This document shows, in pieces, positions 49,655 to 58,017 of a stretch of 64,000 bases of DNA; the stretch's first letter is position 1, and the number at the start of each line of letters is the position of its first letter. Under the pieces are notes generated by a model that did no database searches, was not told the DNA's origin, and worked only from the letters and a program-made list of their open reading frames with translations. The stretch spans positions 235,538,001-235,602,000 of the forward strand of contig NC_091978.1 of the NCBI RefSeq assembly GCF_044704955.1, written 5' to 3'. This stretch comes from Pristiophorus japonicus. Lineage: Eukaryota. A program made the translations under genes and the position numbers.

Positions 49655-50641
49655 TTGGCAATGTAGGATAGGATAATCAGACACCCTAGCTGAAATTTAT
49701 GTTGGATAATTCTGCCAAACAAAAATGAGAATTTGAGAGATTCTTTGTTTTGCAGCATAGCTAAAAATCCAAGCTAAATTTCAAGCACACTTGGCTGAAC
49801 TGAAGAGTCCAGATAGCTGCGCCTATGGGAATAATAGGGCACTTGCGTGATTTCCATCATGATCGAGAGACTTTTGGAGTTGTATGTGCAGTGGCTAAAA
49901 ATGTTTTTTAGCGCGAATAGTATCGTCGAAGTCCCCAATAATGAAAACCATAACCGGGTGGTTTTAGAAAGAAAACGGGCTATTTACTTGACTGAAGCAG
50001 GCCCCGAGGTGTATGAAACCCTGAAAAATTAGCCCATGGAAATTGCTGAAAATTATCGTTTTGGAATATGAGATCAATTAACTGTGGAAAGTGTCAATGA
50101 GTATTGTAGCATTAAAAAAGCTGTCCATTCACTGTCATTTTGGAAACTTTCAGGACCGAGCATTGCGTGACTGCTTTGTTTGTGGGATGAAAAATGAAGC
50201 AATCAGAAGAAAGTTGTTGACAACCCCTAACTTGAATTTTTATTTAGCTTGTCAGACAGCTATGTCAATGGATACGGTGGACCAATACTTCTGAGATTTT
50301 CGTGCCATTTTCAGTCATCAGCCAACCAAGGCGAATCGCCTGCAGGTTAAAAGCAAAAGGCAGTTGGACCCCAAATCCTCAGCCACTGGCCAAGGTAACA
50401 ATACATTGACGTCATACTATCAGTGCCTGGGACAACACATTGCTCAAAGCTGCCCATGTGTAAAAGCAGAGTGTTTCTTCTGCAAGAAAACTTGGCATCT
50501 TGCAAAGGCGTGCTGACTGAAGAGTAAACCAACTTACAAGGCTATAAGTAGAAATCGCCAGAAACTACATAGCATTGAAGAGATGCAACAGGACGAGTAT
50601 GTTCTGGAGATGCATGTCATCAGGAGCACAAGGGTACCTAA

Positions 50642-51898
50642 TAGTTTAGTTCCACTCCAGTGGGGAGCTTGTTGAGTGTGAGGTGCAGCATTGCAGCGAG
50701 GAAGATTGAGAAGAAGGTTGGCGTGATGACACAGCCCTGCTTGACCCCAGTCTGGATGTGGATTGGGTCTGTGGTAGATCCGTTGGTCAGGATCACGACT
50801 TGCATGTCGTTGTGGAGCAGGTGAAGGATGATGACAAACTTTTGGGGGTAGCTGGAACAGAGGAGGACGTTCCATAGTCCCCTGCGGTTAACAGTGTCAA
50901 AGGCCTTTGTAAGGTCAAAGAAGGCCATGTACAAGGGTTGGTGCTGGTACCTGCATTTCTCTTGCAGTTGTCGTACCATAAAGATCATGTCCGTTGTACC
51001 CCGTAGTGGACGGAATCCGCACTATGACTCTGGGAGGAGCACCTCAGACACAGGGAGAAGACGATTGAGGAGGATTCTAGCAATGACGTTTGCGTTTGCG
51101 CACATTCAGAGGCTGAACTCCAAGTCATAGTCAACATCTTTACCGAGGCGTACGAAAGCATGGGCCTTACACTAAACATCCGTAAGACAAAGGTCCTCCA
51201 CTAACCTGACCCCGCTACACGAGAGTATTCGAAGATCAGGCCCTCAAACCTGGCATTAAGCATATGGTCTACAGGGCTGTAGTGATACCTGCCCTCCTGT
51301 ATGGTTAAGAGACATGGACCATATACAGCAGATACCTCAAATCGCTAGAGAAATACCACCAATGATGTCTCTGCAAGATCTTTCAAATCCCCTGGGAGGA
51401 CAGACACACCGATGTGAATGTCCTCTGTTAGGCCAACATCCCCAGCTTCGAAGCACTGACCACACTCGACCAGCTCCATTGGGCGGGCCACATTGTTCGC
51501 ATGCCTGACACAAGACTCCCAAAGCAAGCGCTCTACTCGGAACTCATACATGGCAAGCGAGCCCCAGGTGGGTAGAGGAAACATTTCAAGGACTCCCTCA
51601 AAGCCTCCTTGATAAAATGCAACTTCCCCACTGACACCTGGGACTCCCTGGCCAAAGACCGCCTTAAGTGGAGGAAGAGCATCCGGGAGGGCGCTGAGCA
51701 CTTCGAGTCTCGTCGCCGAGAGCATGCAGAAAGCAAGCACAGACAGTGGAATGAATGTGTGGCAAACCAGACTCCCCGCCCACCCTTTCTTTCAACAACT
51801 GTAATTCCCATATTGGACTGTTCAGTTACCTAAGAACTCACTTTTAGAGTGGAAGCAATTCTTCCTCGATTTCAAGGGACTGCCTATGATATGATGAT
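50642..51898 (+). mobile_element. RTE-clade LINE with inverted 5' segment
   Basis: Minus-strand RT part at 50642-51087 (DLTKAFDTV, GVKQGC, GVELNY); plus-strand continuation CAHSEAELQ.. to a (TGA)n tail; TSD GGTACCTAA at 50633-50641 and 51899-51907. Confidence 0.93.
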
Positions 51899-53198
51899 GG
51901 TACCTAACAACAATTAACGAAGTATCGTCATCCAACCAGACGGAACCAGGATACCCAGCGAAATCGACACTGGCGCATCCGTTAGCATAGTACCGGAATC
52001 TCTATATCTCGACAAAGTGAGTGATTTTCCGATGGAGAAAGCGAAGATCGACCTGCAAGGCTACTCAGGCGAGCAAATCCCTGTGGTAGGACATATAACT
52101 GTACCGGTGAAATACAAGGATCCGTTTCAGAGCTTGCCTCTCTTTGTAGTGGCAGGAAGCAAGCCTGCGTTGACAGGGAGAAATTGATTGGGATCACTGA
52201 AGCTGGATTATAATGAGATTTTTCGTGTTGAAATGAGATTTGTATTGAAAGATAACGTCATCAAGAAGTATCTGAAGGTGTTCTGCGAAACAGGCAGTCC
52301 GATCCAAGACTTCAAGGCGAATGTCAGATTACAGAAGGACACTAGACCAGTTTACTGCAAGCCACGTTCCGTACCATATGTACACAAGGAGCAAGTTGAG
52401 CAAGAACTCAAAATATTAGAGACTGAGAACATTATCTCTAAGGTAGATCTAAGTAATTGGGCTACACCCATTGTTGTTGTACATAAGTCAGATGGTAAGG
52501 TAAGGTTTGTGTGGTGATTATAACGTAACCGTAAACCAGGTTCGAGAGGGTAATCAACCCAATATATTGCCAAATGTAGAAGATTTGTTCACAACACTGA
52601 CAGGTGGTCAGATCTTCTCAAAGTTAGATCTGACAAATGCCTATTTACAACTTGAACTAGATGAAGAGTCCAAGTCATGCTTGACTGTAAATACTCAGCT
52701 AGACATCTATCAATTTAATAGGCTACCATTTGGAGTGTCTTCCGCCCCGCTACATTCCAAGGGGTGATGAACCAGATTTTGTAAGGCATTTAAGGGGTGT
52801 ATGTTATTTAGATGACATACTCATTTCAGCACCAAACAGGAAAATCCATAATCGTGTATTGAATGAAGTGCTGAAATGGCTAGTAAAAGTACGAGTGACT
52901 TCTCGCAAGTGTGAGTTATTTCAAAACTCAGTGGAGTGCATAGGGCACAGAGTAGACAAAAATGGTTTACATCTAACCAAGGGAAAGCTGGATGCAATGC
53001 ACCCATTCCCAAGAATGTTACTGAACTTCGATCATTTTGGGGTCTTTTGAACTATTATAAGAAGTTCCGACCAAATTTGACTACAGTATTACATCCACTG
53101 AATGAACTATTGAAAAAACAGGTTTATTGGATGTGGTCAGAAGAATGCGATGCAGCATTCAAAGAGTGTAAAAGCCAGTTGATAGAGAGCACCATGTT

Positions 53199-53482
53199 GT
53201 TTTTTTAATCTTTTTTTAAAATTTTTTAAATTTTTTATCCAACTCTAACGCCAAAGATCACTTTGCGCCAATGTGTTTGATCTTAGGCCAAAAGGCCGAG
53301 AGGCGAAGTTGCACCGTTCCTGGAAATATTGCAATACCAGGTCGGTGCATGGAGTGGATGGGGCATGCCCCTGATCCAGCTCCTTGTCCAAAAATCAATT
53401 CAATATCATGTCCCCATAGGGGATATTAAACTGATAAGAACAGATACTACACTTGATCTTAGCCAAAAGGCCGAGAAGCGAT
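53199..53482 (-). mobile_element. U2-snRNA-headed retroposon (candidate SINEU-like element)
   Basis: Full U2, second U2 5' fragment, 40-nt unique segment and A-rich tail; splits the Gypsy ESTM|LVHYD sequence with an ATGTT duplication. Confidence 0.85.
53308..53482 (-). ncRNA. RNU2: U2 spliceosomal snRNA-derived sequence (retrocopy, probably non-functional)
   Basis: ATCGCTTCTCGGCCTTTTGGCTAAGATCAAGTGTAGTATCTGTTCTTATCAGTTTAATATC matches the vertebrate U2 5' end; Sm site GATTTTTGG; stem-loop IV CCTGGTATTGCA..CCAGG; about 9 nt of stem IIa/IIb missing. Confidence 0.95.
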
Positions 53483-54555
53483 GTTAGTTCACTATGACGT
53501 ATCTAAGGAGATCAAGCGAGCATATGACACCTCTCCGTATGGAGTTGGAGCAGTGATCTTTCCTGTCCTAGTTAGTAGGGAGGAGAGACCAATTGCTTTT
53601 GCTTCATGCACTCTCAGTGCCAGTGAGCATAATTATGCGCAGATCAAAAAAGAAGCTTTGGCATTCATTTTTGGGGTCAAGAAGTTCCACAAATTCTTGT
53701 ATGGTCATAAGTTTACCATTGTTACTGACCATCAACCCCTGTCAGCAATTCTCCATCCAAAGTCCCCAGTTCCAACCTTAGCCGCAGCCCGAATACAGAG
53801 ATGGGCTTTGATTTTATCAGCCTATACGTATGACATTGAGATCAGCAAATCACAGTAATGTTGATGCTATGTCCAGATTGCCATCCCCATCACTAGTTAC
53901 ACCCAATAGGAAAGCCAAATTTGTCACAGTTAATAGAAGAGAAACAATTAAGATAGAAAGAGAATCATGATAGAGGTAGAGTAAGAGAGAGAAGTGTGAA
54001 ATTGAATCAGGAGTTTAGAGTGAAGAAACATCCCCATAAATGGTTAAAGTCATTCCCAGGAAGAGTAGTGAAGATATGTGGTCCTTGCACATATTTGGTC
54101 AAGATGTCTGATCATGGAATGGTTAGGTTTGTTCACATTAATCATATTTTACCTACAGATGTGGAAGGAGTTGAAAGTTAGAATGATTCTATTATTTCTG
54201 ATACAAGCCAGTAGCAAATCCTACATCATGTGTAATAGAAACAAATCCAAGAGGAAGTCAGAATTTAAGTCTGAGTCCGAGTCAGGCAGATAAACCTGAA
54301 TTTGTAGAGAGTCAAAATGTTGCCCTTGGAGGAAAAACTCTTCTCAGGCTCAGCCTGGAATGAGTCTACGTTCATCACCAAGTTGCGAAAGTTCTGTTCG
54401 AGAGCGAAGGTATCCTCTTCGAATCAGAAAACCAGTGGTTAAGTTTGATTTGTAAATATGGCAAAATAAGTCCATATCTTTTGTTGTGTATAACCATGCA
54501 AGTTACATTTGCTGATTATTTTGTTGTGATTACTTCTTCAATGTGGAGGGAAAAG

Positions 54556-55201: not shown

Positions 55202-55495
55202 TGTCATGTATCTAGACATGTTACTGCCTGTACTATTACATGTGATGTGCCACCAGAGGGCACTACTATGGGAAACTTGTACACCAGCTGTATGGTCACG
55301 AAGGTGTGCCACCAGAGGGCACTGCAGTGGGAGACTTGTAGGTTATCTGTACAGGTGGGCCAGGCCTAGTATAAAAGATAGGCCACCATGTGTGATCCTC
55401 ACTCTGGAGTTATATTAAATGGACTAAGGTCACTACAGTTCAAGTGCAATATATTGCCGTGTGGAGTCATTATCAGAGCATCTAAAGGCATAACA
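55202..55495 (+). repeat. G3 5' LTR
   Basis: TGTC...AACA; internal 59-bp duplication; TATAAAA at about 55370. Confidence 0.95.
55250..55322 (+). promoter_or_regulatory. Two CTCF core consensus matches in the G3 LTR (also 58394-58407 and 58453-58466)
   Basis: CCACCAGAGGGCAC at 55250 and 55309 fits CCASYAGRKGGCRS exactly; binding not demonstrated. Confidence 0.6.
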
Positions 55496-55528
55496 AATGG
55501 CAACGAGATTACGAACTTTCACACGAAA

Positions 55529-58017
55529 GTGGCTAACCTTGGCATGTTGCAGCAATTCGCCGATGGAGATGGTTGGGACGCCTTTGTGGAGAGGCTCGAC
55601 CATTTCTTCACAGCAAACAACCTGGCAGGCGACAACCCGGCCACACTGACTGATAAGCGCAGAGCTATCCTGCTAACCATTTGTGGGGCCATCGTCTATG
55701 GCCTCATCAGGGACTTGCTGGCACCAGCGAAGACAATGACCAAGATATATGAGGAGCTTGTAACACTGATTCAAGAACAACTCAAGCCCAAAGAGAGCAT
55801 CCTCTCAGCCAGACACCGGTTTTATCACCACCGACAGCCCAAAGGCCAGGAAATCATGAAATATGCTGCAGACTTCAGGAGGCTGGCGGCACCATGTGAT
55901 TTCAGCGACCACCTCACCGAAGTGCTGCGGGATATCTTTGTCACCGGAGTCTGTCACGAGGGCCTTTTTCATAGGCTACTGTCTGCGGATACCACAGTCA
56001 CACTGCAGAAGGCCATCACCATGAGCCAGGCATTCATGACCTCGACCTGTGGCTCTAGGCGGATGACTCATCCTCAGGACTCAAACCCGGCAAGTACCAC
56101 ACACAGAATGGCGCCTTTTAGAGGCTGGATTGTAGAACGTGAATCTCCTCAGGAGAGAGAACAGGCCCCCGAGTCCTTTAACAGGGTCTGCCAAGGGGGG
56201 CTAATCAAGTAGCACCATGCTGTCGTTGTGGAGGGAATCACAGGGCTCACCATTGCTGTTTTCAGGACTATGAGTGTAAAGGCTGCAGCACAAAGGGCCA
56301 CCTCCAGCGAATGTGTAAAAGAAATATGACTCACTGTGTTGATGAAGAGTCTGCAGATGGCCATGAATCCAGCATGGATTATGAAGCGATAGCCAGAGAG
56401 GCAGCTCAGCCCCACGATGAGGTGTATGGCATATTTACCTGCACCACAGAATGTTCCCCGCTGAGGATGGAAGTCGAGAAAAACAGCGTTCCAGTCTTCA
56501 TGGAAGTGGACATGGGGGCGAGCCAGTCAGTAATGAATCAAGAAGCCTTTGAGAGGCTATGGGACAATCAAGCTGAACAACTCAAGTTGGTCCTGGTTCA
56601 GGTAAAGCTGCGCACCTGCACCAATGAACTTATCCCAGTCGTTGGTAGTGTGGATGTAAAGGTACTCCATGATGGCGCAGTGCACAAGTTACCACTGTGG
56701 ATTGTTGCAGGTAATGGACCAACGCTACTCGGTAGAAAGTGGATGAAGAAGATCCATTGGAGCTGGGAAGATTTCACCCCTCCAGCAATCGACATCCCCC
56801 GCGCTCAGAGGCAAAGCAAGCTCCCACCGGAGGTTGGATCCGGCACCAGCGAGCAGACCAGCACAGCACACGAGGCATAGACCACTCAGCACAACTGTGT
56901 GGAGATGATCCAGCTGAGACAACCCGAACGCACTTTTCAGGCTCGAGTGGCAGGACTCCGGTGGAAGAAAATCGGATCCAAATGCGACTTCCCAGCCTTG
57001 GTGGCAGAACCCAGAGAGAAGAGGATCACAGCAGTCGACATCGTGGATGGAAGAAAGATGGCGCCCAAACCACGAGGTGATGCGCTAAAGAAAAAGATGG
57101 CGGCGGCCAGACCACGAGGTGCAGCGCTAATGGAGCAACACGTGGTACCAAGCGAAGAAGAGGATTGGGGTAAAGATAGCAAGGCCCTCTCAAAAGAGAC
57201 CAGCAACCCACCACACCTAAAGGGACAGTTCCACATTCTCAATCAATGTAATAGCAACTGTGAGTCAAATGTAAAGCTTGTAATTGATGATTAGAGTATT
57301 ATATACGTAATAAGCAAAGAAAAGTCGTGCGATTCCAATCGGAGATACAGTATATCTACAATGAGTAATGAAATGTTGTGCGATGTAGTATTTCAACTGT
57401 ATTCTGATTATGCAGCGGGCAAACACCCATCGGGAGCACACAGGTCCAGTGAGCTTCCCGATGTTGTAGCCTGCATCCCTGGGACCAGAGTGATGCATCA
57501 CGGAGTGTGGCCACAAGCAACTAAAATAGACAAGCTGCAGAGCAAGCGATCTCAGGAGGGCAACGGCACCGGTATTGATACCCTGCCCCTGATCGGCTCC
57601 ACCTCTCAGGCACCCAATGGCACCAACCGCCACGAGCCTGAAAGAGCAAACCACGCTAAGGCGCAGCTCCCAGACCCTATCGCCACCAAGACTACACCTG
57701 GGAATGAAGGGTCCCCCACAACGGTCCTCCCAAATGGGACCGGGACGAGTCAGGATCCCAACCCAAAGAACGCCCAGGCAAGCAAGTCAGCAGTTCCCTG
57801 CGCACTACCAGATGACTGCCCCTCAGGGACCAGCAGCGACCCAGGTCACAAGGAAAGGATAGGGAGGTCACAGGCATCTGTGAACCTGCCCAACGCTAGG
57901 AGCAACGACAAGGGCCCCAAGAGCAGGCAACTTGAACCAACCGAGTTCCCACTGCCAGCACTGGGCACCGCGCCACCACCAGACTACGTGGACACCACCC
58001 AGCAGTTCTGGAACTAG
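55529..58017 (+). pseudogene. G3 gag-protease-X polyprotein (one frameshift, two in-frame stops)
   Basis: gag WDAFVERLDHFF..RRAILLTICG; two CCHC knuckles; protease MEVDMGAS..LLGR. ORFs at 56311, 56899 and 57361 share one frame. Confidence 0.8.

Follow-up and report, generated by a model that had tools for sequence, protein, structure and literature searches.

SINEU elements, short interspersed elements (SINEs) whose heads go back to the small nuclear RNAs (snRNAs) U1 and U2, have been found only in crocodilians, with none detected elsewhere, according to the available text of the paper that treats them (PMC4494074). That text leaves their transcription open, the U1 and U2 promoters lying outside the transcribed region, and describes tandem insertions of SINEU-3 that sandwich a target-site duplication (TSD). 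U2 genes are themselves targets of long interspersed elements (LINEs): in the accessible parts of the relevant papers, the published 3′ target of Keno lies between U2 nt 38 and 39 (PMC6136364; PMC4640811), and Utopia has a 3′ junction identical to Keno's, but a nuclease of the restriction-like type (PMC4640811). The element considered here is a U2-headed insertion in a 64,000-nt stretch of the 5.92-Gb Pristiophorus japonicus genome (positions 235,538,001–235,602,000 of NC_091978.1, contig C2 in our labels; hereafter the window). It belongs, as one copy among many, to a dispersed SINE family whose reality we regard as practically certain. No report of SINEU outside crocodilians was found in the literature searched, which did not extend to subscription journals, Repbase or Dfam, so that prior cataloguing is possible.

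The element splits a Gypsy-type pol frame and is read on the minus strand (Table 1). The only Rfam match in the window is to U2 (53482–53304, minus strand, 140.6 bits against a gathering score of 46), in agreement with the initial annotation, which had seen U2 here from nt 1 to its 3′ end. Aligned to a host U2 gene (L031), the element covers gene nt 1–196, including about 5–8 nt of 3′ flank; 16 positions are mismatched, and three deletions, of 9, 2 and 1 nt, set it apart from the gene. The largest of them takes out gene nt 60–68 and with them the 3′ strand of stem IIa, while the branch-point-pairing hexamer (GTAGTA, U2 nt 33–38) and the Sm site are both intact; this combination, too, had been noted at the outset. 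A second U2 5′ stub, a non-U2 segment with a hairpin and a patterned A-rich tail are all present as described, with two corrections of extent: the stub does not stop at 53277 but runs on in degenerate form to 53269, the equivalent of U2 nt 38, and 16 nt of the family tail are missing here. Otherwise the window copy differs from another copy (L026) at 2 of 242 sites, and it belongs to the subfamily designated A1 below. The proposed ATGTT duplication (53194–53198 and 53481–53485) is borne out by an uninterrupted Gypsy paralogue, 87% identical, in which the 5-mer occurs once; at 5 bp it is short for the family, where TSD cores detected elsewhere are 7–18 bp long. Internal runs of four to five T occur in the element sequence.

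The initial annotation had taken this composite for a SINE derived from a master element, to be supported by many dispersed copies with TSDs of their own, and such copies are what the genome holds. A 101-nt junction query returned 782 candidates; among the 40 scored, 39 besides the window were 100% identical over 86 nt, on contigs C1–C6. The exact junction 30-mer of this family, here called family A, has 287 matches in the genome (0 for the reversed-pattern control), and an older tail 26-mer has 168; exact-match counts of junction and tail k-mers, here and below, are lower bounds on copy number. The layout is near-full U2 with the shared 9-nt stem IIa deletion, the U2 stub, a non-U2 tail of ~45 nt and poly(A), about 270 nt in all. 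Of 106 copies examined, 62 have a TSD core of at least 7 bp next to their 5′ boundary, and 53 clean cases have cores of 7–18 bp (duplicate loci L087, L173, L185 and L187 were excluded from the TSD analysis, and L120 also from the junction, stub and hairpin counts). Truncation at the 5′ end is frequent; 17 of 30 A1 copies start within U2 nt 1–10. Two near-identical pairs of insertions of the A0 subfamily (L172/L173 and L184/L185) have the same flanks, one pair being inverted about 1 kb apart, and are probably local duplications.

Genuine U2 genes, among 48 scored, are of two types: a tandem array with ~770-bp units (C19 and unplaced contigs) and ~20-kb units on C9. Set against the C19-type gene, and leaving the 9-nt deletion aside, the consensus of A0, the oldest subfamily, has a single difference in 151 sites, as compared with 7 in 151 against the C9-type gene; the A2 and A1 consensuses differ from the C19-type gene at 9 of 148 and 12 of 148 sites. 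In A0, the first U2 runs on into C19-type flank and then joins the second U2 5′ end by microhomology; the stub equals the gene at nt 37 and 38 in all 27 copies and at nt 39 in none (copies picked on the start of the tail). Outside the query, copies have diverged from the consensus of their own subfamily by 2.3% in A0 (n = 18) and 3.0% in A2 (n = 15); the figure for A1, 1.2% (n = 19), is biased low, as the best matches were picked. Family A is shown by these alignments to descend from the host's own tandem-array (C19-type) U2 gene, by steps from A0 to A2 to A1.

One could instead suppose that there is no SINE family, and that the copies are U2 retropseudogenes of separate origin, read-through retrocopies or a variant U2 gene; a head of nearly full-length U2 followed by a few nt of gene 3′ flank is what these would give. 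This is extremely improbable: the 9-nt deletion, the junction of stub and tail, and cumulative diagnostic changes are common to the subfamilies, and the tail, with hundreds to thousands of exact matches, is unlike the flank of either gene type.

A sister family, B, has the order U2 (nt 1–28/29), U1 (nt 3–57), U2 3′ half, stub and a longer tail, of which the stub and the beginning of the tail are common with A. Its middle part aligns to host U1 with scores of 56–67, against shuffled maxima of 32–40, and includes the host-type stem. A 19-mer from the B tail has 3,642 exact matches. Pieces of U1 and U2 have been added at the 5′ end recurrently in this family, giving both the U2 + U1 + U2 3′ half form and variants headed by U2 (nt 1–38): in L099, L100 and one copy in L208 the head equals U2 exactly up to nt 38, and by alignment one B subfamily is shown to have a head of exactly U2 nt 1–38. 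A variant called B2 is 340 nt long plus its A tail, and its tail has 203 exact matches, of which 1 among the first 100 listed falls in the C9 U2 cluster. In 45 B2 copies from 40 loci (5 of them picked as pairs), almost all differences from the copy in the C19 array are shared diagnostics, so B2 is very young. Ten of the 45 start at +1, and none carries upstream-region sequence.

These host matches bear on the relationship to SINEU. Because A0 is nearly identical to the host's own U2 gene, an independent origin can be argued. Homology through shared ancestry or horizontal transfer would account for the like building blocks (U2, U1 and a unique tail of ~40–45 nt) and for the Keno-related partner described in the available text of PMC4494074, but A0 is a single site in 151 away from the host gene and includes its 3′ flank, and the middle of B aligns to host U1 down to the host-type stem; we consider such homology very improbable. 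Descent from a crocodilian U2/U1-derived ancestor is not what was found, and the origin is probably independent.

The link to a Tx1-type LINE suggested in the initial annotation gained substance when an intact one was found at the Keno site in host U2 arrays. In an array unit on C1003, a two-ORF (open reading frame) LINE of 5.7 kb lies between U2 nt 1–53 and nt 38–191, with a 16-bp duplication and 34 extra nt at its 5′ side; full-length copies in the C19 array are 98.7–99.8% identical to it. ORF2 (1147 codons, stop to stop) has the Pfam domains Exo_endo_phos, RVT_1 and zf-RVT, with no restriction-like endonuclease domain among its four Pfam matches. ORF1 (L063:5508–7250, minus strand) has a zf-CCHC and two ZCCHC3-type RNA-binding domains (E 2.9e-20 and 1.3e-14). 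The best named full-length relatives are amphibian and teleost Tx1-type ORF2s at 35–49% identity, and short pieces occur at 71–81% identity within shark gene models. No protein match carried a Keno label; in its domains and its target site the LINE is of Keno type, being inserted ~37 nt into U2 genes with the published Keno 3′ target. The LINE has its own U2 (nt 1–44) head, with two changes beside the cut site. Just behind this head (5′ untranslated region (UTR), L063:7250–7370, minus strand) are an exact octamer and then a second stem-I-like hairpin. As a separate matter, the ZCCHC3-domain matches suggest that Tx1 ORF1 and the ZCCHC3 gene of the host may be connected.

Several properties tie the SINEs to this LINE. 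SINE copies inside genuine U2 genes share its junction of poly(A) with U2 nt 38/39, and the duplications there are alike in length (16 bp for the LINE in C1003, 18 bp for a SINE in L022). The two alternate and stack at one site in the arrays; a LINE-type end shares its TSD with an A0 copy (L175); and in an orphan unit on C14 a truncated B copy, flanked by a duplication of 12 bp, has entered the head of the LINE itself. Where later copies lie inside earlier family-A copies, in 148 dispersed loci, 7 of 9 junctions of poly(A) with internal U2 are at nt 39 (3 of the 7 come from 2 loci not picked for that feature). That the Keno-type LINE mobilises the SINEs is quite probable in our judgement. On the sequences compared, the link between the two is strong inside U2 genes and weak outside them.

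The tail does not come from this LINE. The initial annotation had offered the stub plus tail as a possible relic of a U2-targeting LINE, an idea that finds no support: compared with the array LINE on both strands, in its 5′ and 3′ UTRs, the A0, A1 and B tails scored within the range of 100 shuffles in all 16 comparisons, and they are no more similar than shuffles to its 3′ UTR and body. The B stub region scores 34 against a hairpin in the LINE 5′ UTR (shuffle mean 22.4, maximum 40), which is not significant. A genuine U2 gene flank was also considered as a source and rejected, the tail differing from the 3′ flanks of C19- and C9-type genes alike; the element is thus not a read-through retrocopy. 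The ~45-nt tail had no match in Rfam at E up to 10, searched with one locus containing A and B; some likeness to U6/U4 is conceivable. Its hairpin is perfect in A variants and has an A–C mismatch in common B variants; as it is not kept in most family-B copies, it was dismissed as a conserved signal. The stub does stop where the LINE cuts, so what it more plausibly represents is the 5′ remainder of a U2 gene that took a 45-nt insert of other origin.

A tail without similarity to the array LINE is also what one would expect if a different LINE were responsible, either a Utopia with a restriction-like endonuclease (RLE) or some other family of Tx1/L1 type, from which the tail may have come. The 3′ junction of Utopia is the same as that of Keno (available text of PMC4640811), and the target bias at dispersed sites differs between LINE-type ends and SINEs (see below). 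Even so, every long insertion in the array stretches examined matched the LINE with an apurinic-type endonuclease (APE), although no genome-wide search for Utopia was made, and the alternation and stacking of LINE and SINE at one site, the B copy with its TSD in the LINE's head and the L175 TSD shared with A0 all tell against another mobiliser, which seems improbable.

The U2 arrays are heavily occupied in places. Junctions of upstream region with U2 number 290 for the C19 type and 21 for the C9 type. In C19:69.615–69.726 Mb, which has 17 upstream-bearing units, 11 contain the LINE (several in tandem), 5 contain B2 and 1 is intact, so that 16 of 17 are interrupted (C19:69615000–69726000; L141–L150, L066, L067); ~120 kb of this array hold 15 open ORF2 frames of 1147 codons. 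The B2 copies sit flush behind the U2 upstream region, with 3′ junctions at nt 38, and one B2 copy also lies behind a C9-type upstream region. Unplaced U2 array contigs are mostly intact, with B2 in 5 of 29 units of C1832 and, over the first 10 kb of C1868, in 1 unit among 12 (counted by exact junction; interspersed, with A runs of 36–60 nt); counted by tails, there are 6 and 2. A pattern that admitted tails of 12 nt at most found the family-A tail joined to U2 nt 38 in 6 places, which all belong to C9 U2 repeats and are stacked behind LINE 3′ ends. In C9:111015000–111154000, the U2 3′ flank of ~20-kb units runs straight into a 3′ fragment of the LINE, after which come A-family copies and another remnant of U2. 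Two orphan C19-type units lie off the array, at C14:76772660 (L197, the unit with the B copy mentioned above) and C17:74994133 (L198).

The reading that best joins these observations, and toward which we incline modestly, is that of a young SINEU-type lineage parasitising a Keno-type LINE and the U2 gene arrays. LINE proteins would reverse-transcribe SINE RNA in trans by target-primed reverse transcription, recognising its poly(A) and not a shared tail. Most insertions would fall at relaxed sites or hot spots and be promoter-less, the window copy in Gypsy pol being an example of such an off-target event. The few copies hitting a U2 gene, with their U2 head forming the 5′ junction, would be transcribed from the external RNA polymerase II (Pol II) snRNA promoter at +1 and act as masters; this borrowing of the U2 promoter by array-landed copies has, we judge, a little better than an even chance of being correct. 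A 5′-truncated copy landing in a U2 gene would gain nt 1–38 as a new head. The dimer could have been born by fusion of a full U2 gene to a neighbouring gene containing the 45-nt insert, through deletion of array spacer or a template switch. Because family-A copies keep the branch-point hexamer that adjoins the Keno cut site, they would remain targets, and those in arrays could be overwritten by later LINE or SINE insertions.

A number of observations weigh against this reading. Dispersed SINE sites are only weakly U2-target-like (a mean of 2.06 matches of 6, against 1.59; p = 0.0014), with T as the first target base in 34 of 53 cases against a background of 35%. The 3′-end 24-mer of the LINE has 1,826 exact matches, but the ends among the first 60 are mostly about 10–20% diverged from the array LINE; in the 57 of these that were usable, U2 flank occurs in none, the first base is G in 25, T in 18 and C in 14, unlike the T bias of the SINEs, and only 3 share a site with a SINE (controls, 0–1 in 20 draws). 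Among the 45 dispersed B2 copies, only 2 carry the state specific to the C19 array, at B2 positions 113/130, and none has U2 nt 39+ as a 3′ transduction; T71C and G59T are variants of dispersed B2, and the C9 array copy of B2 carries a private change. Given the two carriers and this private change, most dispersed B2 copies came from masters not seen. Family-A copies lying directly behind a U2 upstream region were looked for and not found in C19:69.605–69.835 Mb, on C1003 or C1832, in C1868 (first 10 kb), in the C9 stretches or in the two orphan units, a search that saw 100 of the 290 C19-type upstream junctions, among the matches listed; the family-A copies on C9 follow LINE 3′ ends. Copies in arrays could have multiplied by unequal crossover instead of homing. 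Finally, neither the C19-type nor the C9-type U2 upstream region contains an octamer within 300 nt, and that of the C19 type does not match the U1 PSE at −70 to −55 (13/40, against a background mean of 10).

The last point is judged by the promoters of the host U1 genes, which have an octamer at −204/−206 and a shared motif at −65 resembling a proximal sequence element (PSE); the names PSE and octamer are our own presumptive labels for these motifs. In the C9-type U2 upstream region there is a PSE-like match in the register of U1, at −65 (18/40). In the C19-type upstream region (L031), the best match to the U1 motif is at −24; the snRNA promoter would then be an atypical one, or else the array is silent.

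Some insertions are strongly localised. Twelve of the 148 dispersed loci are at one site in the RNase H part of Gypsy pol (L013, L015, L026, L126, L130, L165, L208, L212, L215, L218, L221 and L226), and L027 and L029 share a site in a frame that we take to resemble a Harbinger-type transposase. Tandem SINE copies sandwich a TSD, as described for SINEU-3. In L249, U1-like sequence follows a LINE-type 3′ end.

Several of these facts would be accommodated by supposing that the family is real and Tx1-mobilised, but that its masters use other flanking promoters (in host genes, for example, or at the hot spot in Gypsy pol) or an internal promoter not recognised as such, the array copies being victims of the endonuclease spread by array turnover. 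The main array has no canonical PSE or octamer, no family-A master was seen in the arrays examined, 43 of the 45 dispersed B2 copies are without the C19-array state, and 12 of 148 loci are concentrated at one Gypsy pol site; transcription from flanking sequence was proposed for crocodilian SINEU by Kojima (available text of PMC4494074). What argues for the U2 promoter in place of these is that the starts of copies cluster at U2 +1, with no 5′ extension in common, and that heads ending exactly at nt 38 are the outcome expected of U2-gene transcription after a truncated insertion. As for an internal promoter, oligo-T runs of the length found inside the element would stop RNA polymerase III. Masters driven by other promoters seem unlikely, though worth keeping in mind.

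If the parasitic cycle is put in its fullest form, as a second, independent birth of snRNA-headed SINEs, the U2 head would serve as a landing arm, the Keno-type LINE would be used for insertion, the 5′ end of the U2 gene would be replaced and its promoter captured, and masters would be multiplied by array turnover; heads of nt 1–38 would come from the target gene without template switching, and the LINE and B heads would lose or alter the cut site while A is overwritten. All of these parts holding together is a tentative proposal, to which we give somewhat less than an even chance. The youngest subfamily may be active now, and it is conceivable that its RNA, through its U2 stem I, its U1 5′ piece or an intact branch-point region and Sm site beside a broken stem IIa, could meet the spliceosome.

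As the source gene, graded subfamilies, an intact partner LINE (with copies mostly >99% alike) and candidate masters inside U2 genes are all present in one genome, the promoter-borrowing model is directly testable. If true, it would show a non-autonomous element living without an internal promoter, and that SINE heads can be donated by a target gene. It would show, too, that mobile elements can fill much of the U2 arrays of a vertebrate, as in the stretch with 16 of 17 units interrupted.

Table 1. Positions in the window of the parts of the element and of the frame that it interrupts.
Feature	Position	Strand	Basis or remark
U2-derived head and body, subfamily A1	53299..53482	-	gene nt 1-196 of tandem-array (C19-type) U2; Rfam and alignment
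Family-wide 9-nt deletion, stem IIa 3′ strand	between 53424 and 53423	-	alignment; 2-nt and 1-nt deletions also in body
U2 branch-point-pairing hexamer (nt 33-38), kept	53445..53450	-	Keno cut site (nt 38/39) directly after
Sm-binding site, kept in A1, altered in A2 consensus	53389..53395	-	
Second U2 5′ stub (U2 nt ~4-38)	53269..53304	-	final 8 nt like the gene in A0, degenerate in A1
Joint of stub and first-U2 3′ flank, via microhomology	about 53304-53299	-	
Non-U2 family tail from nt-38 equivalent, small hairpin	53237..53268	-	16 nt absent between 53241 and 53240
Patterned A-rich tail	53199..53236	-	
Target-site duplication, element 3′ end	53194..53198	+	Gypsy paralogue comparison
Target-site duplication, element 5′ end	53481..53485	+	overlaps U2 nt 1-2
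Gypsy-type pol frame before insertion	52915..53198	+	no Pfam match alone; 87% DNA identity to uninterrupted paralogue
Gypsy-type pol frame after insertion	53481..53858	+	RT_RNaseH, E 1.5e-29

Near the element are stretches that, going by their translations, we take to be disrupted LINE frames of an RTE-like kind and another gag/pol fragment resembling Gypsy (window 50534–51830, minus strand, and 55382–57294, plus strand).

Among known systems, R2 and SIDE-type elements of ribosomal DNA (rDNA) offer a parallel in their way of life: they are promoter-less and rely on transcription of the target gene in a tandem array. The present family differs in that the target is a Pol II snRNA gene, as against Pol I-transcribed rDNA, and in that most copies are dispersed outside the array. 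Co-transcription of R2 is mentioned in the available text of PMC4494074.

The array LINE resembles Keno in its ORF2 of APE, reverse transcriptase and zinc finger, in the CCHC domain of its ORF1 and in its place of insertion, the 3′ target published for Keno at U2 nt 38/39 (PMC6136364); the SINE differs from Keno in being non-autonomous, and has no tail in common with the array LINE. Features also seen in Utopia (available text of PMC4640811) are the nt 39 3′ junction, tandem insertions and the loss of a 5′ U2 fragment at the 5′ junction, but Utopia has a restriction-like endonuclease, and none was seen in the array stretches examined.

The closest likeness is to SINEU. The features of that class present here are a U1/U2-derived head, a non-coding length of <500 bp, poly(A), multiple copies derived from masters, TSDs and 5′ truncation; a target preference shared with a Tx1 LINE is seen at nt 38/39 in the U2 arrays and is weak at dispersed sites (3 of 57). 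In the available text of PMC4494074, SINEU-1, -2 and -3 likewise have lengths of <500 bp, U2/U1 heads, poly(A) and recurrent U1/U2 additions; SINEU-3 has a shared internal U2 deletion and a short unique 3′ part; and SINEU in general has no LINE with the same tail, TSD-sandwiching tandems, a preference for particular transposons and a Keno-related Tx1 partner. The differences are the host, Pristiophorus japonicus, a lineage that comes from the host's own U2 array, the U2–U2 dimer layout, and a partner that is an intact U2-targeting LINE where SINEU has Tx1-Mar (available text of PMC4494074). SINE copies in genuine U2 genes behind the upstream region are a further difference, being unreported for SINEU in that text, and borrowing of the U2 promoter, if true, would answer the question which it leaves open on SINEU transcription (PMC4494074). 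With U2 retropseudogenes and snRNA-L1 chimeras, finally, the element shares U2 sequence, poly(A) and a TSD; those are one-off events, whereas this is a master-derived family with subfamilies.

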